From Eledone cirrhosa (taxonomy: Eukaryota): a DNA stretch of 63,963 bases. Shown here one piece after another: positions 7,701 to 63,963 of the stretch. The stretch covers positions 352,718,001 through 352,781,963 of the forward strand of contig OZ024741.1 in NCBI GenBank assembly GCA_964016885.1, in the 5' to 3' direction. The translations under genes and the position numbers were made by a program. Numbering within the stretch: the first letter of the stretch is position 1; every line of letters begins with the position of its first letter. Under the pieces are notes generated by a model. It saw only the letters and a program-made list of their open reading frames with translations, was not told the origin of the DNA and did no database searches.

Positions 7701-8290
7701 CATAAGCTGGCAGCGTCATGTCTTAGTATGGCGGTGTCGTGTCATAAGCTGGCAGTGTCATGTCTTAGTATGGCAGTGTCGTGTCATAAGCTGGCAGTGT
7801 CGTGTCATAAGATGGAAGTGTCGTGTCATAAGATGGAAGTGTCGTGTCATAAGATGGCAGTGTCGTGTCATAAGATGGCAGTGTCGTGTCATAAGATGGC
7901 AGTGTCGTGTCATAAGATGGCAGTGTCGTGTCATAAGATGGCAGTGTCGTGTCATAAGATGGCAGTGTCGTGTCATAAGATGGCAGTGTCGTGTCATAAG
8001 CTGGCAGTGTCATGTCTTAATATGGCAGTGTCGTGTCTTAGTATGGCAGTGTCATGTCTTAGTATGGCAGTGTCATGTCTTAGTATGGCAGTGTCATGTC
8101 ATAAGATGGCAGTGTCATGCCTTAGTATGGCAGTGTCATGTCTTAGTATGGCAGTGTCATGTCTTAGTATGGCAGTGTCATGTCATAAGATGGCAGTGTC
8201 ATGCCTTAGTATGGCAGTGTCATGTCATAAGATGGCAGTGTCATGCCTTAGTATGGCAGTGTCATGTCATAAGATGGCACTGTCTTATGG
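4705..8290. repeat. 21-bp minisatellite (~170 units), core AGTGTCGTCTCACAAGCTGGC, with diverged flanking variants
   Basis: Direct tandem repetition; the 7-aa periodic ORFs (CRLTSWQ, ACETTLP, AVSSHKL) are by-products. Confidence 0.98.
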
Positions 8291-32790: not shown

Positions 32791-33112
32791 CTGTAGAAAT
32801 CAAGTCAGAATCAGTTCCCGTATGAGCAAGACAAGGTCAGCCGACCGGACACTGCCCACAACAGGACACCCCATCTAACCCATGCTAGCGTGGAAGAACA
32901 GACGTAAAACGGTGATGATGATGATATATATACTTATATGATGATGATGATGATGATGATATACTTTGGGAGTGTCATGCTGCCAATAAAAGCTCACATA
33001 CCTGGTGCATGTGATTTTTATTGGCTGTATGACCTTTCCAAAGTATAACAATATCTATTTCAACACACAAAAACCATATGTTGGTTTTTGTGTGTATATA
33101 TATATATATATC

Positions 33113-40260: not shown

Positions 40261-41693
40261 GTAGCTGAATCAATGACCGAACTAGAGAAGAAATTCCAAA
40301 CATGGAAGCACGGCCTAGAATCAAAAGGCCTTAAAATTAACTTGGCTAAGACTAAAGTTCTAGTTTGTAGGAAAGAAAATAAGGCGGCGGTCCCATCTGG
40401 GAAATGGCCATGCTCAGTGTGTAGGAAAGGCGTAGGTAGAAACTCCATTTTATGTCCCAAATGCAAAGTATGGGTGCATAAAAGATGTAGTGGGCTCACA
40501 GGTAAGCTAACTAAGAACATAGATTTTACATGTGGCCGGTGCTCTGGTGCAATAAGTAGCAGCAAGTGCCCACGAAATACTAGCTCCTTCAACTGCGCAG
40601 AGGGTTCTATAGAAATAGTGGACAGCTTCCGTTATCTGGGTGACAAAATCAGCAGTGGGGGAGGGTGCTCTGAAAGTACAGTAGCTAGAGTCAGAACTGG
40701 ATGGAAAAAGTTCAGAGAGCTTATACCACTATTAGCCGCTAGAGGGTTCTCCCTAAAAATGAAAGGCAGGTTATACGATGCCTGCATACGAACAGCAATG
40801 CTGCATGGCAGTGAGACCTGGGCATTGTGTGCAGAGGATATACGCAGACTAGAGAGGAACGAAGCTTTCATGCTCCGCTGGATGTGCAATAGTAATATAC
40901 GTGAACGGCAAAGCATAAACGAACTAAGGAAAAAATTAGAAATAAGAGGGATCAGATGTTTACTCGAGAGAAGGCTACGTTGGTACGGTCACGTGATGCG
41001 CATGAAAGACGACAGCTGTATAACAAAGTGCAGGGCAATAAAGATAGACGGTAGCCACGGAGTAGGCAGACCCAGAAAAACATGGGACGAGCTGATAAAT
41101 TCCGACCTCACACGCTTACACCTCTCCAAGACAATGTCACTGGACCGAGACCTTTGGCGGTACTCAGTAATAGAGAAGACCCGCCTTACCTAAATACAAA
41201 GTAAAAACCTACTACAGTCAGTAGGCATCTCTATCAAAACACACCCCCGTCCCACCACCTCCACCCCACCCACACCGCCCCTTTCAATGTAAAGTTATGT
41301 TGGTCCCACAACATCCAGGCCGAAACAAATGAGATCGTGTAGGTGTCACGACAAAAAACACACAGTCCACGCTGTAAATGTGGCCGTGTAGGCAACACGG
41401 TAAAAACCTCCCAGCCCCACACTGTAAATGTGGTTGGTGTTAGGAAGGGCATCCAGCTGTAGAAAACCCGCCAGACAGTCCACGCTGTAATGTGGCCGTG
41501 TAGGCAACACGGTAAAAACCTCCCAGCCCCACACTGTAAATGTGGTTGGTGTTAGGAAGGGCATCCAACTGTAGAAAACCCGCCAGACAGTCCTATGCGA
41601 GCAAGACAACCACTCTTGCCTCAAGTGGGAAAACCCCCGTCCAAACCCATGCAAGCGTGGAACACGGACGCTAAACCTGATGATGATGATGAT
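40261..41693 (+). mobile_element. 5'-truncated RTE LINE with PHD finger; 3' UTR carries a ~113-bp tandem duplication
   Basis: ORF to 41193 (ends EKTRLT); 3' UTR collinear with 61083-61494; (GAT)n tail. Confidence 0.96.
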
Positions 41694-42849: not shown

Positions 42850-43416
42850 AGTCTTCAAAGTGAAAATGTTTCGAGAAATAGTGATTCTACAAAGTTGTTG
42901 CCGACATCTGTCCACTCCAAACCTGATGATACTGTGATAAAGAAACAAGAAGGCAGCAACAGAAAAGACAACAGCAGCATAAATAGCAACAGCAATGCCA
43001 ATAGCAACAAAAACAATAATAATAGCAACTATGATAATTCTGATGATGATGTGTTTGTAGTTAAAAGAAAAAGAGAGGAAGCAGTGTTGAAGCCGACAGA
43101 GGCAAAGGCTGTTGAGAGTGCAAGGGACCTCAGGACAAAGAATGATGTTGAGGCAAACAACTTAAAAAACATCAAACAAACTGCAGGAGTGGAAGAGACA
43201 CAACCTCCACTGCCCTCACTGGTGTCTCCCATATTACTACCACCAGCATCACCACCATCACAAGCACCACCAGACCACCAAGAAAATGAGCAACAACTGC
43301 AGCCTCCACAGAACCAAATATCTCATATATTCAAAAGCGATGAGCTTCGTTCTGAAACCAGTTTGAATGCCACACCTGCTTCAGTGGAGAGGGTTGCTTC
43401 TCCAAGACCTGAGAAG
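42850..43416 (+). CDS. LMO7: Exon of LMO7/LIMCH1-family gene (low-complexity, Asn- and Pro-rich, 189 codons)
   Basis: AACAG acceptor, AAG|GTAGGT donor; phase 0 at both ends; fully open. Confidence 0.8.
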
Positions 43417-43806
43417 GTAGGTTAAATAAAAGCAACGTTCAATGTCAAGACTGTAATTGTGTGAGAAATGTTAACCTTGAATGGTGAGGTCAGAAGAGAA
43501 AGTGGGATTGGGGAATTATAAGAGTAATCCCCATATTAGTACTTTTGCTTTTGGTTTAAACCTTTTGTGACCATGTTTCTAAATAAATACACACTTTCAA
43601 TTGAAATGATTCATTTGAGAAAAATCTAGAATTTGGAGTAATTTAGTAACGTAACTAATATTTTCATTTTAAAGTTGGTATTTGGAACATAACTTAACAA
43701 AGGTTTTTACATAAACTTATGAAAGATTTTCATTTAAATGTTAATACTTTAAATCATCCTGCATGATGTATGAATGCATATTTGTGTCTGTGTGTATGAA
43801 TGTTTG

Positions 43807-43897: not shown

Positions 43898-44830
43898 CAA
43901 TATGTTATTTAAAGGTTATGGCAATGCAAAATAGTCAGTAGGTTTCAGAATGAATTGAAGGCAACAAAGATTTTAGTGCATCACCTGTTATTTTATTTAT
44001 CTGTTTCAATATTTCGGGTCTAAAACCCTTTGTCAGAAAACTAGAATAAGAAACTGATTCAGAGTTTGTGCTATTGTTGTCATTATTGGTTCACTATTTT
44101 TCCATACTTTGTTTGTAAGCTGTCAGAAATGATGTCATCTATGATGACATATATAATGATGTCATACTTTTGTTTATTTTTACGTTAAATTTTTGAAGGC
44201 AAATGTTGTGACAAGTTGTAATAGATTATTATGTATTAGGACTTGTGTATATGTGCGTGTATATGTCAAATGTGTGTCTAGTTGCAATTATCTTTAAAGT
44301 TAGCTATCATGTGTATGCATTATTGTGTCAGAAGTTACATATGTGTGCTTTCATATTAAGTATTGCGTGCTGAGTTCTAATCTGTTGTTGATTTGTGAGT
44401 TTAGCCTGGCTATTAGTATTCCTTCTTTGATTCTAAAGTTGCCTAAGTTCCTCTCCCTGACTTGAATAGTAACTGTTGTGTTTTTGTTGTTGTTTTGCAT
44501 TTGTCTAAGTGTTTCTTGAATGACAGGAACATGTACACACTACATTATAAACATCAGTCCACAGACAGCATCACTCTGGCAGCTTACAAACAAAAGATGA
44601 AAAAATAGCAAATCAATAATGACAACAATAGTATGAACTCCAACCCAACTGATAACAGCAAGGATAACATAAATTCTGAGCCCGTGTTTTAGTGTCTTCT
44701 GACGAAGGGCTTCAGACCCAAAATAATAGAGCAGGTAAATAAAATAACAGGTGGCCAAAATTTTTGTTTCCTTCAATTTATTCTGAAATCTACCATCTAT
44801 TTTGCATTGTCATAGCCCTCAAGTAACACA

Positions 44831-44833
<3 letters not shown>
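43898..44833 (-). mobile_element. Old PLE remnant: GIY-YIG C-terminal scrap + pLTR (-) and inverted pLTR (+), each with a decayed HHR
   Basis: Inverted arms 43898-44126 and 44576-44833; HHR-like cores CTGAC(A/G)A-aGGG..CCC-(G/A)AAA; RIKE/GILIARLNSQIN on the minus strand at ~44390-44440. Confidence 0.6.
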
Positions 44834-47340
<2,507 letters not shown>

Positions 47341-49146
47341 GATAGGAGTAACTATAGAGGCATTAAATTAATCGACCAGGTCATGAAGGTCACGGAAAAA
47401 GTAATAGCGCAACTAATCAGAGAGAGAATTGATCTAGATGAAATGCAGTTCGGGTTTGTGTCAGGCAAAAGCACCACAGACGCTCTTTTCATAGTACGAC
47501 AACTACAGGAGAAGTACCTAGCTAAAGGTAAACCCCTCTACTTAGCTTTTGTCGACCTGGAGAAAGCCTTCGACAGAGTCCCCCGCTCCATTATCTGGTG
47601 GGCTCTTAGAAAACTAGGCGTTGACGAATGGCTTGTGAGGGCTATACAAGCCATGTATAAAGAAACAGTCAGCAAGGTTAGAATTAACAACGAATATAGT
47701 GAAGAGTTAAGCGTAAAAGTTGGCGTCCATCAGGGCTCTGTTCTCAGCCCCCTACTATTTATTATTGCCCTTCAGGCTATAACAGAGGAGTTCAAGACAG
47801 GCTGCCCATGGGAACTCCTATACGCAGACGACCTGACACTCATAGCGGAATCAATGGCCGAGCTAGAGAAGAAATTCCAAACATGGAAGCACGGCCTAGA
47901 GTCAAAAGGACTTAAAATTAACCTGGCTAAGACCAAAGTTCTAGTTTGTAGGAAAGAAAACAAGGCGGCGGTCCCTTCTGGGAAATGGTCGTGCTCGGTA
48001 TGTAGGAAAGGCGTAGGTAGAAACTCCATCTTATGTCCTAAATGCAAAGTATGGGTGCATAAAAGATGTAGTGGGATCACAGGTAAGCTAACTAAGAACA
48101 TAGACTTTACATGTGGCCGGTGTTCTGGTGCAATAAGTAGCAGCAAGTGCCCACAAAATACTAGCTCTTTCAATTGCGCAGAGGGTTTTATAGAAATAGT
48201 GGACAGCTTCCGTTACCTGGGCGATAAAATCAGCAGTGGGGGAGGGTGCCCTGAAAGTACTGTAGCTAGAGTCAGAACTGGTTGGAAAAAGTTCAGAGAG
48301 CTTATACCACTATTAGCTGCTAAAGGGTTCTCCCTAAAAATGAAAGGCAGGTTGTACGATGCCTGCATACGAACAGCAATGTTGCATGGTAGTGAGACCT
48401 GGGCATTGTGTGCAGAGGATATACGCAGACTAGAGAGGAACGAAGCTTGCATGCTCCGCTGGATGTGTAACAGTAATATACGTGAACGGCAAAGCATAAA
48501 CGAACTAAGGAAAAAATTAGAGATAAGAGGGATCAGATGTTGTTTACTCGAGAGAAGGCTGCGTTGGTATGGACACGTGATGCGCATGAAAGTCGATAGC
48601 TGTATTACAAAGTGCAGGGCAATAAAGATAGACGGTAGCCACGGAATAGGCAGACCTAGAAAAACATGGGATGAGCTGATAAACTCCGACCTCACACACT
48701 TACACCTCTCCAAGACAATGTCACTGGACCGTGACCTTTGGCGGTACTCAGTAACAGAGAAGACCCGCCTTGCCAGTAGGCATCTCTAACAAAATACACC
48801 CCTCCCGCCGCCACCCCCACCCCATCCACACCACCCCGTTCTATGTAAAGTTATGTTGGTGCCGCGCCATCCAGGCCGAAACAAATGAGATCGTGTAGGT
48901 GTCACGACAAAAAAACACACAGTCCACGCTGTAATGTGGCCGTGTAGGCAACACGGTAAAAACCTCCCAGACCCACACTGTAAATGTGGTTGGTGTTAGG
49001 AAGGGCATCCAACTGTAGAAAACCTGCCAGACAGTCCTATGCGAGCAAGACAATCACTCTTGCCTCAAGTGGGACTACCCCCGTCCAAACCCATGCAAGC
49101 GTGGAACACGGACGTTAAACGTTGATGATGATGATGATGATGATGA
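47341..49146 (+). mobile_element. 5'-truncated young RTE LINE; open ORF 47383-48789 (RT + PHD finger)
   Basis: QFGFV, AFVDLEKAFD, GVHQGSVLSPLLF, LLYADD motifs; (GAT)n tail; flanked by TA repeats. Confidence 0.97.
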
Positions 49147-49196
49147 TATGTTTATATATATATATTTATATATATATATATATTTATATATATATT

Positions 49197-49229
<33 letters not shown>

Positions 49230-49232
49230 ATT

Positions 49233-49325
<93 letters not shown>

Positions 49326-49580
49326 ATATTTATATAGTTTTGCGAGGTTTTTTATATGAAATCGTGTGTCGAAACAGATATTGTTATATTTGGGGAGGGT
49401 CATATTTGCGTAATATTGCCAGAATTAATAACAGAACACACTCACTGTTTGGTTGGTTTTCGCTTCTCGCTGTCTTTTATATATATATATCTGCGATCTA
49501 ACTTACTCGGTCCTCAATGTTGCCATTGACTGACCGGCGGTCAAAAATAATACAGATACAATATAGACAAACACATATAT

Positions 49581-49638
49581 ATATAGTTTACATAAATCTT
49601 TCGTTGCACATCTGCAACATCGTCAGTGGTGTTATATT
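49581..49638 (-). ncRNA. Hammerhead ribozyme (minimal type I) in the 3' pLTR of PLE A
   Basis: Minus strand ..CA-CTGACGA-T-GTTGCA gatg TGCAAC-GAA-AGATTT-A|TG..: intact core, 6-bp stem II, quasi-palindromic stem III, short stem I. Confidence 0.78.
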
Positions 49639-49904
49639 CATTGTTCCTCCTGTTGTGTTGTATGTCTACGCCATTTTTTTTTTTTTTGTTCAGTCTGTCT
49701 ATATATTTATTTATTTATTTGCTTGTTTGTTTATCTTATTTTATTTTGTCTTCTTTGCGCATGCGTTTGCGTGTGTGTATAGTGTTATGTGTGATGTGTG
49801 ACTAGTGTGTATAGTGTTGTGTCTGCTGGGTGACTAGTGTGTGTTTATGTGCTTGTGTATGTATTTATTTATCTTATTTTATTTAATTTAATTTACTTAT
49901 TTAT

Positions 49905-52900
49905 TTATACTTCTCTTAGGTCAGTGTTGTTTGTTTGGGTGTTGTTGTTGTTCCACTCATTCTTTCTGTTTAGCTTTGGTCTTCTAATTTCTATTTCACT
50001 GGCCTCTCTGATTTGCCTATCTGCTGGGTCATTCCTATGTTTAGATATTATTCTAATTTCTATGTTGTCTATGTTACCGTCATGATGTTGTCTAGCATGT
50101 TCGTATAGTACTGACCCGTTTTTTCGTCCTTTTAGTTCCCCCCAGTGTTGGTCTATCCTTTCACCTATGCTACGAGCTGTCTCACCTATGTATGTTGTTG
50201 TCGTGTTTCTGCAAGTACCCTCTGTACATCTTATGCTATAGACTACGTTTCTAGTTTTACAGTTTATCCGGGGGTTCACCTTACATATGATACATTTCCT
50301 ATTGGTACAGTGGGTTTTCTTAAAAGGGTAGGTTTTGCTGATCAGGGATTTTATGGTGGTTCCTGGCTTTTCTACCACCTTTATTTTTAAGTGGGTCTTT
50401 CTCAGGGCCTTTCTACACTGGTTAGCTAATTTCCCTCCAGGGGTGGCGTCCACAAACATGACACTCTGATATCTCTGGTTGTCGTACCATGATGTGGCCT
50501 TCCCTATCTTATGTCTAGCCCTATCTAAGCTATTCCATGATTTGCTCCTGTATAGTGGGCAAATTCCTTTCATGTCCAGTTCTATGAGGGTCTTATACTT
50601 TTCCATGGCTCCTTCGTATACTCTGACTCTGTCTCTTTGGTTGTAGCCAGAGAACTGCATGCGGTTGATGAAGTGTTGGATGTGTCCTTCCATTTCTGTT
50701 GGGTCGCACATGCTGGACACATTCTTCATCACTCGTACCAAATCTGCGATCAGAATATTAAACTTAGCACTACTGGACATTGCTGAGTTTTTGAGTATCA
50801 GGTATTTGGAGGCCATGGGTTTAGCATAGTGTGAGTGGAGAATTTGGGCTCTCTCGTCTATAGTGTTAATCCAGAGTTCTGTGTCTAATACAGGTAGTCT
50901 ATTGTTAGAGTGTTTGGAAGGGAAGTCTATAGTTACAGTTATACTCTGGTGTATGGAATTAGCTATCTGCTGGATGCTTTCCATCGTGCTACGTTCTAAA
51001 TCAAACTTGTTAGTGCTCTCTAGTGGGGGTGTTCTTATAACTATATTGATATCGTCTACATAACGAGAGTACATGATGAGGTCTATGGAGCTTTCATTAA
51101 GGAGATCTTTAAGTCTCCTTTCCCACCATACCATGAAAAGGTTGGCAACATCGCCAGCTATGCTGACGCCGATGGCTGCTCCCTCATTTTGGGTGTAGAT
51201 TTTCTCATTGAACTTAAATATGTGGCCCTTTAGGGTAGTTTTGATACTAGCCCCTATTGCATGTGCGACCATTTTTCTTACCTGATCAGTGTTTTGGGGG
51301 GTCCGTATAGCTTTGGTCCACCCAATCCACCTTCCTATGGGAGTCTTTTTAGCCATTGAGGTTATGGTGGGGGGTCTACCTCTTATAGGTCTACTAGGGC
51401 AGAAACATCTAAGGTCATGGCTGTCTAGGTAGTCAGTGTCGTAGGTAAGTCTAAGTAGGAGGCCCAGTTCGTCTGTGTCGACGTCGCAGAACTCCACCTC
51501 ACTCTCAATGATCATCTCCACACATCTTTTCACAGCAAAATCAATGTTAATGGATGGGTACAGTGACACCACATCCATGCTGCCTATTATGCAGTTGGAT
51601 AGGCTCCTGTTTTTGTTGCACTCACTGATTCTGCTGAGGAGGTCCTCTGTACTTTCACATACATCTGGGGACATCTTGATTATGGGGCGTATAACCATTG
51701 AGAGGAAGTAGGAGATCCTGTAGTTGCTAGCTATATTAGCTCCGCATACAGGTCTTGTTGGTGGTCCTATTGTCGGGTCGTCGACTGTCTTGTGGTCTTT
51801 GCGGAGCCCATACAAGGGTGGTATGCCATTGTTAGACGCCTGGAAGTTGTTGGCAGTGCGTCTGCTTGGCTTTAGGATGTCAGTCCACATCATCATGTGA
51901 GCGTTGAGGATTTTTTCTCTCCCATCGTGTGTTAGTTGTGCAACTTCGCTCGTGTTGGTGATGTGGGGTTGCATTGCCTCGATGTAGTTCGGCATGCTAT
52001 CTATTGACATCCTACCAGACTTATCTGTGGGTAGACACACTACCTCACCATCCCTTGTGCGCTGCTTGAGGCTAACCAAGCCTTCTACAGGTTTTATCCC
52101 AAGTTGTTGGGCCTCTGGTCTGCTCTGTCTCATAGTGTACCTGTCTACTACTTGTCTAATCTTATTTCTAGCTATGGTGAACTGTGCCTCCGTCTCGTCA
52201 TCTATTTGTTGTGGTATGCAAACTCTTTTATTAAAGGGTAGCCTCGTAGGATAGATATTACCCATCTTATATGTTTTGTCAGCTGGGTTGAAAAATAGTT
52301 TCTCTAAGGGGTTGTCGTTATTTCTATCGTCATAGTTGTGTGTGTTGCTATTATTGTTATCATGGTGGTTGTTGTTGTTTCTATCCTTAGCATTAATATT
52401 ATTATTGTTATGATTGCTAGATGTATTGTTGTTTACTTCACCGTTATTGTTGTTGTTGTTACTGCTATTTCTACCATTGTGGTTGTTACTATTATTATGT
52501 TTCTTGTTTTTGTTGATGTTGCTACATGTACTATTTCCATTATTACCACTGTGGTTATTGTTGTTGTTGTTGTTCGTATTGTTACCGTTATTACTACTGT
52601 GGTCACTGTTGCTGTGTCTGTGGTTAACGTTTCTATTATTATTATTATTGTGGTTGTTGTTGTTCTGTCTATCGCTAGTATTATTACCATTATCACTATT
52701 TCTCACTTTCCTGCCATTGTTATGGTTATGGCTGTTATTTCTATACCCAGAGTTATTGTTTATATTACTACTACCGTTATTATTGTTGTTGTTGTTTACC
52801 TTTGCATTCCAACGTATTTTTGTGAAACACTTTTCCAGCTCCGTTTTGCATTCCATAGGATTAATCTTTTTGTAGATGGCAAATTTTGGTGGTAACTTTA

Positions 52901-53537
52901 GGATTTGTTGTTCTTGTTCACTGATTAAAGTGTTCCCATAGATATTTACTGTGTGGTCATTGGTAAATTCTTCCGGTAGTTTTACATCACTCATACGGAT
53001 GTTGTCGATGTTATCTGGGTATTTTTGAGAATATTCGATTTTCCTTTCTTGTAGTTTTTTCTTATTCATCCATTCTAATTTCTTCTTGAAATGCCTACAG
53101 CATTCGTTTTGAGCATATTTCGTTTCGCGTCGGATGACGCTCATGAAGTCATCTCTCTCGTTTGCTGTGATGAGATTTCGGATTTCCTTACCGTTGATGC
53201 GTTTTTGTCTGTAGAGTGCGTTGACTTTTGTGTATGTTGTTCTTTTCATATTAACTGTTATTGTGTGTTTTAGCCGTTCAGCTTGTGTTTTGTTCAATAA
53301 TAAATTATTTACTTGTTTTGATATGTTTGTTGTGTATGTTTTGGAGGAAACACAGTGTTTTAAGAAGCGGATTTGTTCTGTTGTTATTGTAGTTTTTATA
53401 TAACAGAAAACAGTGTCTTTCAATAACCTTTCAGCTTGGCACAAGCTAATGCCATAGCGGCGATGAATTAGTTTTGCGAGGTTTTTTATATGAAATCGTG
53501 TGTCGAAACAGATATTGTTATATTTGGGGAGGGTCAT
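49905..53537 (-). CDS. PLE polyprotein, 1210 aa: N-terminal domain with Asn-rich insert, RT (PTDKSG, YGLRKDHK, MDVVSLYPSI, RYVDD), Cys-rich linker, C-terminal GIY-YIG endonuclease (NVVY...YIGETAR...E...PKLN)
   Basis: Uninterrupted ORF with the PLE catalytic motifs. Confidence 0.95.
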   Translation of the reverse strand: MTLPKYNNICFDTRFHIKNLAKLIHRRYGISLCQAERLLKDTVFCYIKTTITTEQIRFLKHCVSSKTYTTNISKQVNNLLLNKTQAERLKHTITVNMKRTTYTKVNALYRQKRINGKEIRNLITANERDDFMSVIRRETKYAQNECCRHFKKKLEWMNKKKLQERKIEYSQKYPDNIDNIRMSDVKLPEEFTNDHTVNIYGNTLISEQEQQILKLPPKFAIYKKINPMECKTELEKCFTKIRWNAKVNNNNNNNGSSNINNNSGYRNNSHNHNNGRKVRNSDNGNNTSDRQNNNNHNNNNNRNVNHRHSNSDHSSNNGNNTNNNNNNNHSGNNGNSTCSNINKNKKHNNSNNHNGRNSSNNNNNNGEVNNNTSSNHNNNNINAKDRNNNNHHDNNNSNTHNYDDRNNDNPLEKLFFNPADKTYKMGNIYPTRLPFNKRVCIPQQIDDETEAQFTIARNKIRQVVDRYTMRQSRPEAQQLGIKPVEGLVSLKQRTRDGEVVCLPTDKSGRMSIDSMPNYIEAMQPHITNTSEVAQLTHDGREKILNAHMMMWTDILKPSRRTANNFQASNNGIPPLYGLRKDHKTVDDPTIGPPTRPVCGANIASNYRISYFLSMVIRPIIKMSPDVCESTEDLLSRISECNKNRSLSNCIIGSMDVVSLYPSINIDFAVKRCVEMIIESEVEFCDVDTDELGLLLRLTYDTDYLDSHDLRCFCPSRPIRGRPPTITSMAKKTPIGRWIGWTKAIRTPQNTDQVRKMVAHAIGASIKTTLKGHIFKFNEKIYTQNEGAAIGVSIAGDVANLFMVWWERRLKDLLNESSIDLIMYSRYVDDINIVIRTPPLESTNKFDLERSTMESIQQIANSIHQSITVTIDFPSKHSNNRLPVLDTELWINTIDERAQILHSHYAKPMASKYLILKNSAMSSSAKFNILIADLVRVMKNVSSMCDPTEMEGHIQHFINRMQFSGYNQRDRVRVYEGAMEKYKTLIELDMKGICPLYRSKSWNSLDRARHKIGKATSWYDNQRYQSVMFVDATPGGKLANQCRKALRKTHLKIKVVEKPGTTIKSLISKTYPFKKTHCTNRKCIICKVNPRINCKTRNVVYSIRCTEGTCRNTTTTYIGETARSIGERIDQHWGELKGRKNGSVLYEHARQHHDGNIDNIEIRIISKHRNDPADRQIREASEIEIRRPKLNRKNEWNNNNTQTNNTDLREV

Positions 53538-53714
53538 ATTTGCGTAATATTGCCAGAATTAATAACAGAACACACTCACTGTTTGGTTGGTTTTCGCTTC
53601 TCGCTGTCTTTTATATATATATATCTGCGATCTAACTTACTCGGTCCTCAATGTTGCCATTGACTGACCGGCGGTCAAAAATAATACAGATACAATATAG
53701 ACAAACACATATAT

Positions 53715-53772
53715 ATATAGTTTACATAAATCTTTCGTTGCACATCTGCAACATCGTCAGTGGTGTTATATT
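53715..53772 (-). ncRNA. Hammerhead ribozyme in the internal pLTR of PLE A, ~190 nt upstream of the ATG
   Basis: Identical to 49581-49638. Confidence 0.78.
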
Positions 53773-54040
53773 CATTGTTCCTCCTGTTGTGTTGTATGTC
53801 TACGCCATTTTTTTTTTTTTTTTGTTCAGTCTGTCTATATATTTATTTATTTATTTGCTTGTTTGTTTATCTTATTTTATTTTGTCTTCTTTGCGCATGC
53901 GTTTGCGTGTGTGTATAGTGTTATGTGTGATGTGTGACTAGTGTGTATAGTGTTGTGTCTGCTGGGTGACTAGTGTGTGTTTATGTGCTTGTGTATGTAT
54001 TTATTTATCTTATTTTATTTAATTTAATTTACTTATTTAT

Positions 54041-55821
54041 TTATACTTCTCTTAGGTCAGTGTTGTTTGTTTGGGTGTTGTTGTTGTTCCACTCATTCTT
54101 TCTGTTTAGCTTTGGTCTTCTAATTTCTATTTCACTGGCCTCTCTGATTTGCCTATCTGCTGGGTCATTCCTATGTTTAGATATTATTCTAATTTCTATG
54201 TTGTCTATGTTACCGTCATGATGTTGTCTAGCATGTTCGTATAGTACTGACCCGTTTTTTCGTCCTTTTAGTTCCCCCCAGTGTTGGTCTATCCTTTCAC
54301 CTATGCTACGAGCTGTCTCACCTATGTATGTTGTTGTCGTGTTTCTGCAAGTACCCTCTGTACATCTTATGCTATAGACTACGTTTCTAGTTTTACAGTT
54401 TATCCGGGGGTTCACCTTACATATGATACATTTCCTATTGGTACAGTGGGTTTTCTTAAAAGGGTAGGTTTTGCTGATCAGGGATTTTATGGTGGTTCCT
54501 GGCTTTTCTACCACCTTTATTTTTAAGTGGGTCTTTCTCAGGGCCTTTCTACACTGGTTAGCTAATTTCCCTCCAGGGGTGGCGTCCACAAACATGACAC
54601 TCTGATATCTCTGGTTGTCGTACCATGATGTGGCCTTCCCTATCTTATGTCTAGCCCTATCTAAGCTATTCCATGATTTGCTCCTGTATAGTGGGCAAAT
54701 TCCTTTCATGTCCAGTTCTATGAGGGTCTTATACTTTTCCATGGCTCCTTCGTATACTCTGACTCTGTCTCTTTGGTTGTAGCCAGAGAACTGCATGCGG
54801 TTGATGAAGTGTTGGATGTGTCCTTCCATTTCTGTTGGGTCGCACATGCTGGACACATTCTTCATCACTCGTACCAAATCTGCGATCAGAATATTAAACT
54901 TAGCACTACTGGACATTGCTGAGTTTTTGAGTATCAGGTATTTGGAGGCCATGGGTTTAGCATAGTGTGAGTGGAGAATTTGGGCTCTCTCGTCTATAGT
55001 GTTAATCCAGAGTTCTGTGTCTAATACAGGTAGTCTATTGTTAGAGTGTTTGGAAGGGAAGTCTATAGTTACAGTTATACTCTGGTGTATGGAATTAGCT
55101 ATCTGCTGGATGCTTTCCATCGTGCTACGTTCTAAATCAAACTTGTTAGTGCTCTCTAGTGGGGGTGTTCTTATAACTATATTGATATCGTCTACATAAC
55201 GAGAGTACATGATGAGGTCTATGGAGCTTTCATTAAGGAGATCTTTAAGTCTCCTTTCCCACCATACCATGAAAAGGTTGGCAACATCGCCAGCTATGCT
55301 GACGCCGATGGCTGCTCCCTCATTTTGGGTGTAGATTTTCTCATTGAACTTAAATATGTGGCCCTTTAGGGTAGTTTTGATACTAGCCCCTATTGCATGT
55401 GCGACCATTTTTCTTACCTGATCAGTGTTTTGGGGGGTCCGTATAGCTTTGGTCCACCCAATCCACCTTCCTATGGGAGTCTTTTTAGCCATTGAGGTTA
55501 TGGTGGGGGGTCTACCTCTTATAGGTCTACTAGGGCAGAAACATCTAAGGTCATGGCTGTCTAGGTAGTCAGTGTCGTAGGTAAGTCTAAGTAGGAGGCC
55601 CAGTTCGTCTGTGTCGACGTCGCAGAACTCCACCTCACTCTCAATGATCATCTCCACACATCTTTTCACAGCAAAATCAATGTTAATGGATGGGTACAGT
55701 GACACCACATCCATGCTGCCTATTATGCAGTTGGATAGGCTCCTGTTTTTGTTGCACTCACTGATTCTGCTGAGGAGGTCCTCTGTACTTTCACATACAT
55801 CTGGGGACATCTTGATTATGG
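54041..55821 (-). pseudogene. 5'-truncated tandem copy of the PLE A ORF (RT core + GIY-YIG)
   Basis: Translation matches the C-terminal ~590 aa of the 1210-aa ORF; the predicted N-terminus runs into the inverted pLTR. Confidence 0.93.
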
Positions 55822-55971
55822 CAACATTGAGGACCGAGTAAGTTAGATCGCAGATATATATATATAAAAGACAGCGAGAAGCGAAAACCAACCAAACAGT
55901 GAGTGTGTTCTGTTATTAATTCTGGCAATATTACGCAAATATGACCCTCCCCAAATATAACAATATATATT

Positions 55972-56004
<33 letters not shown>

Positions 56005-56131
56005 ATATATATTTATATATTTATATATATATATATATATTTATATATTTATATATATATATTTATATATATATATATTTATATATTTATATATATTTAT
56101 TTATATATATATATTTATATATATATTTATT

Positions 56132-56162
<31 letters not shown>

Positions 56163-56351
56163 ATTTATATATATATATTTATATATATTTATATATATAT
56201 ATATATATTTATTTATATATATATATTTATTTATATATATATTTATTTATATATATATTTATTTATATATATATATTTATATATATATATATATATATTT
56301 ATTTATATATATATTTATTTATATATATATATTTATTTATATATATATATT

Positions 56352-56402
<51 letters not shown>

Positions 56403-56455
56403 ATATTTATTTATATATATATATTTATTTATATATATATATTTATTTATATATT

Positions 56456-56540
<85 letters not shown>

Positions 56541-56550
56541 ATATTTATAT

Positions 56551-56993
56551 ATCATCATCATCATCATCATCAACGTTTAACGTCCGTGTTCCACGCTTGC
56601 ATGGGTTTGGACGGGGGTAGTCCCACTTGAGGCAAGAGTGATTGTCTTGCTCGCATAGGACTGTCTGGCAGGTTTTCTACAGTTGGATGCCCTTCCTAAC
56701 ACCAACCACATTTACAGTGTGGGTCTGGGAGGTTTTTACCGTGTTGCCTACACGGCCACATTACAGCGTGGACTGTGTGTTTTTTTGTCGTGACACCTAC
56801 ACGATCTCATTTGTTTCGGCCCGGATGGCGCGGCACCAACATAACTTTACATAGGACGGGGTGGTGTGGATGGGGTGGGGGTGGTGGTGGTGGGACGGGG
56901 TGTATTTTGTTAGAGATGCCTACTGGCAAGGCGGGTCTTCTCTGTTACTGAGTACCGCCAAAGGTCTCGGTCCAGTGACATTGTCTTGGAGAG
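56551..56993 (-). mobile_element. RTE 3' end (last codons + UTR) in the TA array
   Basis: Apparently identical to 29870-30311. Confidence 0.95.
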
Positions 56994-57046
56994 ACATTTA
57001 TATATATATTTATATATATATATATATTTATTTATATATATATATT

Positions 57047-57077
<31 letters not shown>

Positions 57078-57269
57078 ATATATTTATTTATATATATATT
57101 TATATATATATATTTATAAATGGAAAAAATGAAACAATATTTCATTTCCCACTCTTAGTACGGCTGTTACTTAAATATAAGTATGTACACGTACATACAT
57201 ATATGTATACCGACGTACAGTAGTATGTATATATATATATATACATACATGCACAAAAGTGACAAAGGA

Positions 57270-57312
57270 ACGCTGTACTAGTTTCAAGCTTGTTAGCTAT
57301 CGTCAGCAACGT
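57270..57312 (-). ncRNA. Hammerhead ribozyme (minimal, dimer-type) at the 5' end of a ~190-bp non-coding insert (57120-57312)
   Basis: ACGTTG-CTGACGA-T-AGCT aaca AGCT-T-GAA-ACTAGT-A|CAGCGT: 6-bp stem I, palindromic ACTAGT stem III, GUA cleavage triplet. Confidence 0.8.
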
Positions 57313-57353
57313 ATATATTTATATATATATATATATTTATTTATATATATATA

Positions 57354-57386
<33 letters not shown>

Positions 57387-57412
57387 TTATTTATGTATAT
57401 ATACATATATTT

Positions 57413-57453
<41 letters not shown>

Positions 57454-57532
57454 TATATATATATATATATATATATATTTGTTTATATATATATATATAT
57501 ATATATATTTGTTTATATATATATATATATAT

Positions 57533-60500
57533 GTACTCATTTTTCTAGCTTTCTAACATCCGCTTAATCCATAGTCCTTCCAAACCTATTTCCTCCTGTA
57601 TTTTCCAAAACAAATCTCTTGTATTTTGTCCTGATTGTAAAATATGGAAGTTTTTGGCGTATCTTACTAAACAAATCTTGTATTTTTGTTTACGTTCGTA
57701 AAATACTAGGATCTAACTTAAACCTATTCCTCTCGCTAACAACTCAACACCCCTCCCTTCTGCCCCCACGCACCACCATTATTATCACGTGGACCAATCA
57801 TAAGCCAGAGGCCTATACTATCACTTACCTGGTCGCCTTCGGTATGTAGGATGGAAGGACTACGGAGTTCCGGAGAGTTGAAGAGAGAAAAATCTGGACG
57901 CTCAGCGACAATGCCAAAGTTAAAGACAAACACACCTCGTGGACGAGAATGCGAACATGCCTCTTTGTTTCGGCCGCGGATGGCTAACACAACCCCATCT
58001 CCCCCCTCTCCCCACCTTTCCCACCCTCCAAACGCAATCCCAAACTTCAGATTTGGTACCTTGAATGTAGGCACCTTAAAGGGTCGCTCTAACGAGGTTG
58101 TAGAAATGCTTGAACGTAAGGAGGTCGATGTTTGTTGTATTCAAGAGACCAGGTGGAGGGGTGGATCTGCTAGATTCATTGTGGGTAGAAAACGATGCTA
58201 TAAGCTTTTCTGGGTGGGAAATGACAATGGGCTGTGTGGGGTAGGAATCATGGTAGCAGAAAAGTGGGCAGATAAGATAATAGACGTAAATAGAGTGAAC
58301 GACAGAATAATTAAAATAAGACTTGTCCTCAATAGAACCACGGTGACAGTAATATCCGCGTACGCACCCCAATCCGGACTGCCCAGCACTATAAAAGACA
58401 GATTCTATGAGACACTGATGCTCACTACCTCCCAAATAATCGACAGTGACTATATAATTATTGCAGGCGACCTAAACGGTCACGTTGGACAACATTGTGA
58501 CGGCTACGACGAAATCCATGGAGGCTATGGGTTTGGTACTAGAAATGAGGAAGGCTCCAGAATCCTGGAATTCTGTGACGCAAATAACCTAACTATCTGC
58601 AACACTAACTTCAAAAAACAAGACAATCACTTGATCACCTACAGATCAGGGGAACATACCAGCCAGGTAGATTATATCCTTACCAGAAGATGTGACAAAG
58701 TGACTGTTGTAAACACTAAATCCCTCCCCCATGAAGAATGCACCTCCCAACATAGACTGATAATTAGCGACCTAATAGTCAGGACGAGACGTACTAGGCA
58801 ACAGAAGAGGACTACCCTCAGGAGAAAAATATGGAAGCTAAAGGACCCCACAGCCAAAAATAAATTCCAAAGCATATTACTTGATGCTTTCGACAGTAAG
58901 GAAGAGCAAATAGAGTCGTACAAGGTAGAGGAACAGTGGGAATTCCTGAAAGCAAACCGGCTGACGGCGACAGACGAAGTCTGTGGCTGGAGCAGACCTG
59001 TAGGCAGGAGGAGAGTAACATGGTGGTGGAACAGTAAGGTGGAGGGGTCAATTAAGGCCAAAAAGCAGGCTTGGAAAGTATGGCGGGATGGGGGGAAGCA
59101 GAGAAGACTATCAAGTGGCCAGGAGGGAAGCTAGGAGACAAGTGTACTTCGCAAGAAGGGAAGCAGAGGAAAGAAAGTTCAAGCATGTTCTACAACGTGA
59201 GGACCAAAAACGTGAGGTGTTCAGGATTGCTAGGCAATGTGTCAAGGAAAACAGTGATATTGTCGGGGAGAAGTGTGTACTTAACGATGACGGCGTACTT
59301 GCCATCACCGACGCCGATAAGAAGGTAGCTTGGAAGTGTCACTATGAAAGGCTACTCAATGAGGAGACTAAATGGGAGAAAGACAGTCTCCCCCACATCG
59401 ACCCAATAGAGGGACCAGCAGTGTTAGTCGAGGGTAGTAAAATAAGTAAGGCAATCAAAGATATGAAGACAGGCAAGGCGGCTGGGCCTTCGGAAATAGT
59501 TGCCGAGATGCTGAAGGCATCTGGTACGGTGGGACACACCATGGTCACCCGGATAGTCAACCAAGTCATACAGAATGGGGTTGTTCCGAAGGACTGGCGT
59601 AGCAGCATTATCGTTAACTGTTATAAGGGTAAAGGAGATGCCCTAGATAGGAGTAACTATAGAGGCATTAAATTAATCGACCAGGTCATGAAGGTCACGG
59701 AAAAAGTAATAGCGCAACTAATCAGAGAGCGAATTGATCTAGATGAAATGCAGTTCGGGTTTGTGTCAGGAAAAAGTACCACAGACGCTCTTTTCATTGT
59801 ACGACAACTACAGGAGAAGTACCTAGCTAAAAGTAAACCCCTATACTTAGCTTTCGTCGACTTGGAGAAGGCCTTCAACAGAGTCCCCCGTTCCATTATC
59901 TGGTGGGCTCTTAGAAAACTAGGTGTCGATGAATGGCTTGTGAGAGCTATACAAGCCATGTATAAAGAAACAGTCAGCAAGGTTAGAATTAACAACGAAT
60001 ATAGTGAAGAGTTTAGTGAAAAAGTTGCTGTTCATCAGGGCTCTGTTCTTAGCCCCCTACTATTTATTATTGCCCTCCAGTCTATAACAGTGGAGTTCAA
60101 GACCGGCTGCCCATGGGAACTCCTATACGCAGATGATCTAACGCTCATAGCTGAATCAATGGCCGAGCTAGAGAAGAAATTCCAAACATGGAAGCACGGG
60201 CTAGAATCAAAAGGCCTTAAAATTAACCTGGCTAAGACTAAAGTTCTAGTTTGTAAGAAAGAAAATAAGGCGGCGGTCCCCTCCGGGAAGTGGCCATGCG
60301 CAGAGTGTAGGAAAGGCGTAGGTAGAAATTCCATTTTGTGTCCCAAATGCAAAGTCTGGGTTCATAAAAGATGTAGTAGGATCACAGGTAAGCTAACTAA
60401 GAACATAGATTTTACATGTGGCCGGTGTTCTGGGGCAATAAGTAGCAGCAAGTGCCCACAAAATACTAGCTCTTTCAACTGCGCAGAGGGTTCTATAGAA

Positions 60501-61452
60501 ATAGTGAACAGCTTCCGTTACCTGGGTGACAAAATCAGCAGTGGGGGAGGGTGCTCTGAAAGTACAGTAGCTAGAGTCAGAACTGGGTGGAAAAAGTTCA
60601 GAGAGCTTATACCACTATTAGCCGCTAAAGGGTTCTCCCTAAAAATGAAAGGCAGGTTGTACGATGCCTGCATACGAACAGCAATGTTGCATGGCAGTGA
60701 GACCTGGGCATTGTGTGCAGAGGATTTACGCAGACTAGAGAGAAACGAAGCTTGCATGCTCCGCTGGATGTGTAATAGTAATATACGTGAACGACAAAAC
60801 ATAAACGAACTAAGGAAAAAATTAGAAATATGAGGGATCAGATGTTGTTTACTAGAGAGAAGGCTACGTTGGTATGGTCACGTGATGCGCATGAAGGACG
60901 ATAGCTGTATAACAAAGTGCAGGGCAATAAAGATAGACGGTAGCCACGGAATAGGCAGACCCAGAAAAACCTGGGACGAGCTGATAAACTCCGACCTCAC
61001 ACACTTACACCTCACCAAGACAATGTCACTGGACCGAGACCTTTGGCGGTATTCAGTAATAGAGAAGACCCGCCTTACCTAAATACAAAGTAAAACCTAC
61101 TACAGTCAGTAGGCATCTCTAACAAAATACACCCCCGTCCCACCACCCCCACCCCATCCACACCGCCCCCTTCTATGTAAAGTTATGTTGGTGCCACACC
61201 ATCCAGGCCGAAACAAATGAGATTGTGTAGGTGTCACGACAAAAAAACACACAGTCCACGCTGTAATGTGGCCGTGTAGGCAACACGGTAAAAACCTCCC
61301 AGACCCACACTGTAAATGTGGTTGGTGTTAGGAAGGGCATCCAACTGTAGAAAACCTGCCAGACAGTCCTATGCGAGCAAGACAATCACTCTTGCCTCAA
61401 GTGGGAAAACCCCCGTCCAAATCCATGCAAGCGTGGAACACGGACGTTAAAC

Positions 61453-61494
<42 letters not shown>
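57533..61494 (+). mobile_element. Near-full-length RTE LINE (~3.96 kb): 5' UTR, AP endonuclease, RT, PHD finger, 3' UTR, (GAT)n tail
   Basis: GTLNV, CIQETRW, AGDLNGHVG, IDY-like QVDYIL, SQHRL in the EN domain; RT motifs as above; 5' boundary approximate. Confidence 0.93.
57851..61082 (+). pseudogene. RTE ORF broken by a +1 frameshift in a G6 run (59090-59095) and an AGA>TGA stop (60831-60833)
   Basis: ORFs 57851-59134, 59088-60833 and 60882-61082 join into one EN-RT protein; sister copies have AGA at the stop position. Confidence 0.88.
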
Positions 61495-61802
61495 ATATAT
61501 ATATATATATATATGTATGAATGAAGTAATTCCATCGGAAAAGTCCAGGAAAAAAGAGTGCTCTATGTAGGCAACAGAACTTAATTATTATTATTATGTA
61601 ATAAACAACATAAGGCAATTATTCCATTTACCAGTGGTTTCTTAAAAGCAAAAGGCTTTGCTTTCAATCCTCAGAATGAAAAAATCCTGGTTTGTTTATT
61701 GAATTTGGATTTTAAAACAAAAATGCAATCTCTCTATATATATATTTATTTATATATATGTATATATTTATTTATATATATATTTATTTATTTATATATA
61801 TA

Positions 61803-61834
<32 letters not shown>

Positions 61835-62335
61835 GTTATACTTGGGGAGGGTCATATTTGTGTAATATTGCCAGAATTAATAACAGAACACACTCACTGT
61901 TTGGTTGGTTTTCGCTTCTCGCTGTCTTTTATATCTGCGATCTAACTTAATCGGTCCTCAATGTTGCCATTGACTGACCGACGGTCAAAAATAATACAGA
62001 TACAATATAGACACAAACACATATATAGTTTACATAATTTACATAAATCTTTCGTTGCACATCTGCAACATCGTCAGTGGTGTTATATTTTTTCCTCCTG
62101 TTGTGTTGTATGTCTACGCCATTTTTTATTCAGTCTGTCTATATATTTATTTATTTATTTGCTTGTTTGTTTATTTTATTTTGTCTTCTTTGCGCATGCG
62201 TTTGCGTGTGTGTACAGTGTTGTGTGTGCTGTGTGACTAGTGTGTATAGTGTTGTGTCTGCTGGGTGACTAGTGTGTGTTTATGTGCTTGTTGTTATTGT
62301 GCTTGTGTATGTATTTATTTATCTTATTTTATTTA
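61835..62335 (-). mobile_element. PLE family A pLTR (slightly diverged), inverted relative to the family B body
   Basis: Aligns to ~49383-49885 with a few SNPs and indels; contains an HHR. Confidence 0.93.
62035..62090 (-). ncRNA. Hammerhead ribozyme, family A type
   Basis: Same core and stem II as 49581-49638. Confidence 0.75.
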
Positions 62336-62921
62336 GAAAGGCCCTAAATAAACATAAACTCAATATTAAGATAGTAGAAAGACCAGGTACCTCCGTAAAA
62401 ACACTTATTAGCAAGACATACCCTTTTCAAAGACCCTCATGTATAGATAAGAAATGTATAACCTGTAAAATAAGCCCCCATATTAACTGTAAAACTAGAA
62501 ACGTAGTGTATAGCATAAGATATACGGAAGGACAATGTAGAGACAAAAATATAGTGTACATAGGTGAGACAGCTCGTAGTGTAGGGGAACGGATAAATGA
62601 ACACTGGCGAGACCTTCAAGATAGTAAAGAATCATCTGTACTCTACCAACATGCTAAAATAGAACACAAGGGTAAATTAGAGAACAGAGAAATAAAAATA
62701 GAATCTACACACAGAAAAGACCCAATGTTTAGACAAATTACAGAGGCAATAAACATAAAAGAATTACAACCAAAATTAAATAGAAAATATGAGTGGAACA
62801 GCAACATCACAACTTACAATTAAGGACAAAATGAAAACACACACACACACATAGAACAAACAACCAGCCAGTAACATGTAAATAAACAAATAAATAAATG
62901 AACATAAACACACACAGACAC

Positions 62922-62941
62922 CCGGATGTGGCGCATGCGCA
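62922..62941 (+). promoter_or_regulatory. Candidate pLTR promoter: ETS-like CCGGATGTG next to NRF1-like GCGCATGCGCA
   Basis: GCGCATGCG is also kept in the family A pLTR (49756-49765), upstream of the HHR, while flanking sequence differs. Confidence 0.35.
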
Positions 62942-63026
62942 GACTGAGCACAAAACACACACACAGAAACAAAATGGCATAGGACAGAACAAAGGAGAGG
63001 CACAGAAACAAAGAAAGGAATTCCCA

Positions 63027-63067
63027 GTCACTGAAGAGGTCGGAGTGTGTGACGAAAGAACTATGAC
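63027..63067 (+). ncRNA. Hammerhead ribozyme, family B pLTR
   Basis: GTCA-CTGAAGA-G-GTCG gagtgtg TGAC-GAA-AGAACT-A|TGAC: 4-bp stem I, stem II, CUA cleavage triplet; same position relative to the ATG as in family A. Confidence 0.82.
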
Positions 63068-63234
63068 AATATATAAACAACTATCTGGTTGTGGAACCAA
63101 CCAACCAACCAGAAATTTATAAATTTATTATAAATTTATTATAATAATAAATTGAAGTGAAAGCAACTGGTGCATGTGTTTCTTATTGGCAACATGACCC
63201 TCCCAAAGTATAACAATATATTTATATATATATT

Positions 63235-63309
<75 letters not shown>

Positions 63310-63350
63310 ATATATATATTTATATATATATTTATATTTATATATATATT

Positions 63351-63447
<97 letters not shown>

Positions 63448-63472
63448 ATATATATTTATATTTATATATATT

Positions 63473-63527
<55 letters not shown>

Positions 63528-63530
63528 ATT

Positions 63531-63597
<67 letters not shown>

Positions 63598-63620
63598 ATT
63601 TATATATATATATATTTATA

Positions 63621-63653
<33 letters not shown>

Positions 63654-63808
63654 ATACTTATATATATTTATATATATACTTATATATATTTATATATATA
63701 TATATGTATTTATATATGTTTATATATATATATGTTTATATATATATATGTTTATATATATATATATGTTTATATATATATATATGTTTATATATATATA
63801 TATATGTT

Positions 63809-63845
<37 letters not shown>

Positions 63846-63866
63846 ATGTTTATATATATATATATT

Positions 63867-63897
<31 letters not shown>

Positions 63898-63963
63898 ATA
63901 TATATAAATATATATATATATCTTTATATATATTTATATACATATGGAAGTCGGTGTTGTAAC

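Follow-up and report, generated by a model that had tools for sequence, protein, structure and literature searches.

How does a retrotransposon come to be inserted as more than one copy of itself? This question is raised by a Penelope-like element (PLE) in a 63,963-nt stretch of the Eledone cirrhosa genome (GCA_964016885.1, contig OZ024741.1, positions 352,718,001 to 352,781,963 of the forward strand). We call the whole stretch the window, and all coordinates refer to it. The insert carries two hammerhead ribozyme motifs, and the original prediction for this locus read them as the source of a self-cleaved, unit-length RNA that could circularise and be copied for more than one lap. That inference is possible, but the locus neither proves nor favours it. 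The tandem and the circle idea are ordinary and already published; the more surprising feature of the element is an insertion in the fingers of its reverse transcriptase (RT).

A coding-intact and very young element

The element lies on the minus strand and holds just one open reading frame (ORF) of 1210 aa. On retranslation this ORF runs from an ATG at 53537 to a stop at 49905 with no internal stop. It comprises an N-terminal region, an Asn-rich low-complexity stretch, a telomerase-like RT, a Zn-finger linker and, at the C-terminus, a GIY-YIG endonuclease (EN). A single ORF with such an RT, for which telomerases are the top fold matches, is the arrangement of endonuclease-containing (EN+) PLEs. 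The linker and endonuclease (49953 to 50330, minus strand) show a CX4CxxC finger, a 7-aa spacer, VVY...YIG, CCHH and the catalytic R, E and N positions, matched by eye to Fig. S2 of PMC8557442. The GIY-YIG motifs (CCHH, R/E/N) are conserved in homologs. RVT_1 of Pfam matched the ORF weakly (E 6.5e-5); Pfam gave no match with the whole ORF as query and none on the GIY-YIG endonuclease domain. A sequence search of solved structures returned weak bacterial RT matches only. The nearest relative of the ORF is an Octopus vulgaris protein (70%).

Two parts of the insert, 49335-51685 and 53469-55821, are the same sequence twice. Over 2351 aligned nt there are 0 mismatches and one 2-nt gap in poly-T, which gives a 95% upper bound of 0.13% for the divergence between the arms. 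The whole insert measures 6487 nt, or 1.57 units. Retranslation and alignment thus bear out the uninterrupted 1210-aa RT/GIY-YIG ORF, the 2.35-kb tandem differing by 2 nt of poly-T only and the insertion of about 1.6 units that had been predicted. With no stop in 1210 aa and no substitution between the arms, the element is, as far as its sequence tells, a coding-intact, very young Penelope-like retrotransposon with a C-terminal endonuclease, as the original prediction had it.

The Asn-rich stretch (52311 to 52796, minus strand; residues 248-409) is in frame, precedes the RT and counts 51% Asn over its 162 aa. It resembles the Asn-rich Penelope ORFs of Adineta vaga (PMC3846280), in which an in-frame stretch likewise lengthens the ORF. 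In A. vaga, however, it has 460-554 aa and 25-30% Asn and lies inside or after the RT.

A gene model of O. vulgaris named "dynein regulatory complex subunit 6-like" (P0075) holds a 74%-identical piece of the element's ORF. Here the annotation has probably swallowed a PLE copy.

Insert ends lie within the start of the ORF

The upstream copy (53469 to 55821, minus strand) is a 5′-truncated unit that comprises the 3′ half of the ORF, the 3′ untranslated region (UTR) and the pseudo-long terminal repeat (pLTR). It is joined through a 4-nt CCAT overlap to an inverted pLTR piece of 155 nt on the plus strand (about 55818-55966/55972), which spans -123 to about +26 (ATG = +1) and was missing from the original prediction. 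The main 3′ end of the insert lies at +69, that is, 69 nt into the ORF and 258 nt past the second hammerhead cut site. The 3′ tail of 43 nt (49335 to 49377, minus strand) equals the distance from this long end of the family to its short end at +26. TA microsatellites of equal strand polarity flank the insert on its 3′ side (49150 to 49334) and its 5′ side (55967 to 56550). A pLTR in partial tandem, an inverted 5′ piece and a tail of 30-40 nt (43 nt here) make up the layout of EN+ PLE insertions, as given for PLEs by Craig 2021 (PMC8557442) and for rotifer Pen2a by Arkhipova 2013 (PMC3846280).

Other ends of the family are found at +26 (the inverted piece), at +21 (a second insertion in the window, starting at 61830) and, for a second, related family joined to that copy, at about +26. 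Insert ends fall within the first 70 nt of the ORF, away from the hammerhead cut.

An inverted repeat around the element (48706-49122 and 56573-56993) was rejected as a part of it. Both copies are 3′ ends of a long interspersed nuclear element (LINE), which we take to be RTE-like and which has many copies in the window.

A 5-bp hairpin at 53665-53677 (minus strand) lies just past the stop of the inverted arm (53660), and 53663 is the site of an inversion joint in another copy of the family. In the 61830 copy the stem is kept and the loop altered. The hairpin is a possible RT stall site.

Two identical minimal hammerheads

The core CTGACGA occurs on the minus strand at 53760 and at 49626. The two motifs are identical and 4134 nt apart, and by standard numbering the predicted cuts follow A17 of a UUA triplet, at 53727|53726 and 49593|49592, as had been proposed. 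The cut is predicted 189 nt before the ATG. Both motifs (53725 to 53762 and 49591 to 49628, minus strand) are minimal type-I hammerheads, with a 6-bp helix II that has an extra U on its 5′ side, a near-palindromic helix III and a 2-bp helix I; this form agrees with the earlier suggestion of minimal pLTR hammerheads that may act as dimers. The extra base and the G-C closure of helix II are those of the minimal hammerhead consensus, and the motif scan puts a putative hammerhead in the pLTR, as in EN+ PLEs. The Rfam scan found no hammerhead in 44000-63963.

With the minimal PLE hammerheads of PMC4209133, in their Drosophila virilis variant, the motifs share a long helix II, an unpaired base before G10.1, G10.1-C11.1, a small palindromic helix III and a 2-bp helix I. 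They differ in that the self-duplex of helix III has two G-U pairs, and their cleavage is a prediction.

Of 39 metagenome loci from the lineage, most of them too short to reach the pLTR, 4 contain a hammerhead, where shuffled sequences gave 0.05. All four have sense orientation and follow the RT match on its 3′ side. By these comparisons the motif is real and conserved. Energy calculations do not favour the catalytic fold, either as monomer or as dimer: helix I has a pairing probability of 0.004 in the monomer, and the active dimer fold has -10.4 kcal/mol against a minimum free energy of -27.0 kcal/mol for the dimer. The motif of the second family, which has a 4-bp helix I, does no better (dimer -8.4 against -23.2).

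Two further observations concern hammerheads elsewhere. The hammerhead of locus L026:2426 shows the U3-A8 covariation in its core that is known from Schistosoma elements. In the window, the scan picked out at 61640-61690 (minus strand) a core of hammerhead type, whose helix II has 12 bp and whose candidate helix I has 7 bp; the stretch looks palindromic, and the core may be a chance match.

A candidate promoter downstream of the first hammerhead

A candidate core promoter at 53581 to 53615 (minus strand) consists of TATAAAAG at -78 and, about 31 nt further, CCAAAC, which resembles an initiator (Inr). TATAAAAG starts at 53615, 111 nt downstream of the first hammerhead cut and also downstream of the upstream ATGs at 53710 and 53660. 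The 61830 copy retains it, and so do three divergent strings among family reads. A GT donor at 53640, considered as the start of a pLTR intron, was dropped, as it is lost in the 61830 copy.

A transcript starting at this putative site would have the ORF's ATG first and would carry the 3′ hammerhead only. With the TATA/Inr-like site downstream of the 5′ hammerhead, an mRNA made by the element itself probably carries one hammerhead, and a two-hammerhead transcript needs an outside promoter. There is no sense promoter upstream: the inverted piece points its TATA outwards.

Family copies in sequencing runs

One unit (51690-55821), taken without flanks, was compared with 4 of 24 sequencing runs. 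For variant rows the comparison covers the best 40 of 420, for joints 15 of 216 and for loose ends 24 of 1796; no single read or contig spanned the unit, and the runs need not come from the window's population. Depth peaks in the pLTR and drops toward the 5′ part of the ORF, which is the pattern of 5′ truncation. For example, X1 falls from 1.2 million at 53484-53621 to about 9,400 at 53208-53345, and between these bins both X1 and X6 drop about 100-fold or more. Among its best loose ends, X6 has TA ends at 53467 and 53474, so the family has other copies with this end. In X2, a run with another species label, the eight contigs listed for the unit have 0-4 differences each.

At 54221, 54339 and 55045, at least 98% of X1 depth and all X2 depth carry another letter than the window, and both arms of the window carry the rare one. 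Both laps therefore come from one template lineage; given where the runs may come from, the rare letters could be those of a local subfamily. Nine of 20 variant sites checked are silent, and the changed residues lie outside invariant or nearly invariant alignment columns.

The share of unit words found is 0.72-0.80 in X1, X2 and X5, which have three species labels, and 0.20-0.38 under six more labels. This sharing may stem from close relationship, from differences in labelling or from recent horizontal spread. In O. vulgaris, 336 recently active PLE insertions in 31 families are given in Table 1 of PMC13282606.

How the tandem arose

Internal priming at two sites, with a template switch over a terminal redundancy, best explains the insert, and we give this account about an even chance. 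The source would be transcribed from the pLTR TATA/Inr, about 47 nt before the ATG, through the ORF, the 3′ UTR and the 3′ pLTR, to yield a linear RNA in which a single hammerhead stays mostly uncut and the ends are redundant over about 116 nt. Target-primed reverse transcription would then take place in a TA microsatellite, where an RT/EN dimer would nick both target strands. One end would prime at +69 and copy a full unit, after which a template switch across the redundancy, into the 3′ pLTR of either that RNA or another, would allow 0.5 unit more to be copied. The other end would prime at +26 and copy about 150 nt, and the two arms would join at the CCAT microhomology. By the second lap the ORF would regain a promoter upstream of it, and the new copy could thus be active. 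The hammerhead would here be a weak, probably protein-assisted or regulatory motif, not the maker of a unit RNA.

This account is preferred because the layout matches published PLE inserts, the ends lie at +21 to +69, the TATA lies at the canonical distance from an Inr-like site, both arms share rare letters, and the 2-bp helix I and the fold energies speak against efficient cleavage. It has a precedent in PAc, a Poseidon element of the green anole (PMC11167929), which has two internal RT start sites that yield the tail, cleavage of both strands and a predicted dimer. In vitro, PAc with a mutated hammerhead still inserted normally and uncut RNA served as the chief substrate, and zero RNA-seq reads ended at the hammerhead cut. 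The element here resembles PAc in its two RT starts inside the ORF, its AT-rich target and its hammerhead near the ORF start. It differs in their positions: PAc has RT starts at +111 to +118 and a hammerhead over the start codon, compared with +26/+69 and a cut 189 nt before the ATG here.

The second PLE insertion of the window (61830 to 63209) bears on the same point. Its first arm (61830-62335, minus strand) belongs to this element's family (97.5% at aligned positions), whereas its second arm (62332-63209, plus strand) is a decayed copy of the related family, about 75% alike, with its own hammerhead at 63031. No spacer separates the arms, the junction has a probable 2-nt TA overlap, and each arm's outer end lies in TA repeats. 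Arms of two families joined directly fit two RNAs used in one integration, which supports priming at two sites as proposed; two successive events are also possible.

Several points weigh against this account. Of its steps, the ends and the junction are observed, while we infer the start site, the lack of cleavage and the template switch. TATAAAAG occurs 10 times in the AT-rich window, 4 of them in pLTRs of the element's family, and the second family does not have exactly TATAAAAG at the corresponding place. The D. virilis Penelope promoter is internal and TATA-less (PMC2377424), and six AATAAA in the 3′ UTR could stop many transcripts ahead of the pLTR. The energy calculation is a weak test, because the second family's motif, with its 4-bp helix I, fares no better in it. 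A helix I as short as 2 bp is already known from the D. virilis variant (PMC4209133), and the conservation of hammerheads across the lineage means that they are under selection for something. In run X22, one inversion joint, with a single start position and among the best 15 of 216 joints, lies at 53727, the predicted cut. Finally, a circle would give the identical DNA product.

The conservation of the motif and the joint at 53727 also speak for a rolling circle. A transcript with two hammerheads would be cut at both, the 4134-nt RNA ligated, and the RT, priming at +69, would cross the junction and run 1.57 laps. Self-cleavage, ligation and more-than-unit reverse transcription were already proposed for PLE tandems by Cervera and de la Pena 2014 (PMC4209133), and the wording of the original prediction is nearly that of their Discussion. 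A circle explains the seamless identical laps and the shared rare letters, the unit contains the whole ORF, and the near-palindromic helix III fits dimer action. It needs a promoter upstream of the 5′ hammerhead, however, where the candidate lies downstream and the TATA of the inverted piece faces outwards. Metazoan minimal hammerheads are poor cleavers in vitro (PMC4209133), helix I has only 2 bp, a cleaved RNA would have no cap but two upstream ATGs, and the anole element dispensed with cleavage. Moreover, the insert reaches 258 nt past the 3′ cut, so a linear cut-to-cut RNA was not its template, and only a ligated circle or an uncut RNA fits. The predicted unit-length RNA that circularises to yield a 1.6-mer is therefore compatible with the locus if the RT primes internally on a ligated circle, but it is not favoured. 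All in all, we consider a rolling circle possible but unlikely.

Read-through of a source locus that already held at least 2 units in tandem, with one long multi-pLTR RNA copied once and truncated, would need neither switch nor ligation. An mRNA of multiple copies was proposed by Frangieh 2024 (PMC11167929), and head-to-tail joints in the compared runs occur as continuous sequence only, which is compatible with it. But this moves the question back, since 5′ truncation erodes tandems unless they are regenerated. The X1 depth at the 5′ part of the ORF, about 1% of the pLTR depth, indicates that long tandems are rare, and two arms without a private difference would be needed. We regard read-through as distinctly unlikely. 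Duplication at the DNA level after insertion, or an assembly artefact (a false tandem or homogenised copies), would account for 0 substitutions in 2351 nt together with shared rare letters. The flanks are long microsatellites, and no read or contig spans the tandem in the 4 runs as compared with one unit without flanks. Yet the duplication has the family's 3′ end as its exact start and the inversion junction, with its microhomology, as its other limit, as in the published PLE layout, and no flank is duplicated. Such an origin is very improbable.

An insertion in the RT fingers

The spacing between RT motifs A (D655) and B′ (Q783) is 128 aa. It includes a conserved insertion of about 70 aa (51288 to 51503, minus strand) at the position of the telomerase insertion in the fingers domain (IFD), predicted to be helical and well folded. 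Hand counts in Fig. S1 of PMC8557442 gave 57-60 aa in six rows, with 60 for two Nematis, 57 for two Neptune and 58-60 for Penelope/Poseidon elements; they gave about 81 for Naiad-Amil, about 119 for one Chlamys and 115 for human TERT.

The long spacing is not peculiar to this copy. In an alignment of 97 rows both anchors are present in 93, 90 of which span 119-184 aa. A larger set of relatives comprised 243 sequences, of which 158 were scorable; the spacing is at least 110 aa in 155 of the 158. The query of these searches itself carried the insertion, so the counts reveal a large lineage and not its share among PLEs. Residues S679, E690, R716, P723, R736 and W740 of the insertion are conserved at 81-89%. 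With the insertion left out, a 142-row tree splits 140 long rows from 2 short ones, though its outgroup is too thin to give the split much weight. The endonuclease follows the RT in 105 of the 140 long-spacing relatives; 34 end early without an endonuclease match, and one has the endonuclease first. Named hosts are available for 4 of 20 relatives: three are from O. vulgaris and one, a sequence that does not cover the insertion, is from Sanderia malayensis.

The relative with the endonuclease before the RT, P0173 (1517 aa), resembles a head-to-tail tandem read as one frame. It could instead be a separate domain permutation.

The RT model has a predicted local distance difference test score (pLDDT) of 93, and its best fold matches are telomerases (VIA: 6zd2, Z 15.8, root-mean-square deviation (rmsd) 3.9, 275 aligned; human 9shz, Z 15.5, rmsd 4.0, 367 aligned). 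The insertion alone, modelled as 129 aa, folds into helices with a pLDDT of 87. Its best match among 48161 chains has Z 4.2, and Foldseek gave no match at E 0.001. The insertion lies where telomerases have their IFD; as no solved chain matches the lone fold above Z 4.2, homology between the two is conjectural.

Relation to known PLE groups

Among known groups, the element comes closest to canonical C-terminal EN+ PLEs, above all to Nematis (PMC8557442). Like them, it has the RT followed by GIY-YIG, a CX2-5CxxC finger, CCHH and a DKG-type motif, and it shares the 7-aa spacer to the next Cys with Nematis_C4 and Nematis_Cr. The pLTR hammerhead, partial tandem, inverted piece, tail and TA target are also those of canonical EN+ PLEs. 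It departs from Nematis, as represented by two reference rows, in its A-B′ insertion (128 aa against 60), and its motif B′ reads GAAIGVS; the finger with short spacer, the CCHH and the C-terminal endonuclease of Nematis are all present. Neptune has no IFD and, in the rows of Fig. S2, a spacer of more than 20 aa after the linker finger, against 7 aa here. In Penelope/Poseidon, PAc included, the RT-EN linker is without a Zn-finger as a feature of the clade, whereas CX4CxxC is present here. Hydra elements have no CCHH, DKT and a CxCX5C linker, against CCHH, DKSG and CX4CxxC. With Naiad/Chlamys and telomerase the element shares the insertion between motifs A and B′ and, by its model, an RT nearest telomerases. 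Unlike the N-terminal endonuclease of Naiad/Chlamys, its endonuclease follows the RT. Unlike Naiad, it also has a hammerhead, and its A-B′ stretch is longer than those of Naiad-Amil and human TERT.

According to Craig 2021 (PMC8557442), canonical PLEs are without an IFD, and IFD-like regions occur sporadically in Coprina only. Four motifs of the lineage are absent from the available parts of the Craig 2021 supplements, and a text search of those available from Arkhipova 2013 did not find a description of it; both sets come without the Repbase reference set. A search for a published description beyond Craig 2021, which missed most subscription papers, found none. The lineage may already be in Arkhipova 2006 or Repbase, and the novelty of a finger insertion in a C-terminal-EN lineage depends on an RT tree with named reference elements. 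We put forward only tentatively, as something we think improbable on balance, that the element stands for a PLE clade, deep, diverse and so far undescribed, whose hosts are mostly marine animals. Such a clade would combine a C-terminal GIY-YIG, a hammerhead and an independently folded insertion of telomerase length that, IFD-like, would hold template and product in a switch or second lap and so lead to more-than-unit copies.

Host gene and neighbourhood

Five exons of a LIMCH1/LMO7-like gene lie on the plus strand of the window and correspond to residues 126-671 of the Octopus sinensis homolog P0097. Identity to O. sinensis and O. bimaculoides is 65-90% for four exons and 42-46% for the fifth. 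The last exon found upstream of the element (42850 to 43419, plus strand) is followed by a GT donor. The exon for the subsequent PDZ region was looked for and not found within the window. If the gene continues as in its homologs, the element is antisense in a host intron, and the predicted intronic position holds on this proviso.

RTE-like LINE copies lie at 47339-49134 (plus), 56561-56993 (minus), 57740-61495 (plus), 29879-31191 (minus), 40262-41692, 45850-46115 and 2609-3161, and end in (GAT)n within TA microsatellites. The copy at 57740-61495 is near full length, with an AP endonuclease and an RT in broken frames, and 29891-30311 is identical to 56573-56993 over 421 nt. A remnant of a third related PLE end, like the ORF start of the other two families, lies at 32990-33060 (plus). 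A long, GC-richer tandem array with a period of about 21 nt occupies 4693-8340 and is open in several frames.

Implications

Among the papers covered, one full-length PLE protein has been examined in vitro. An intact young copy with both start sites is a usable second model, from another clade. If the reading as a novel clade is true, the same copy would be a substrate for deciding between a circle and a template switch in vitro. The published split, in which Naiad/Chlamys and telomerase have the insertion and canonical EN+ PLEs do not, is contradicted by a C-terminal-EN lineage whose finger insertion is conserved. Such a lineage also matters for the question whether telomerase kept an ancestral IFD or the IFD arose on several occasions.

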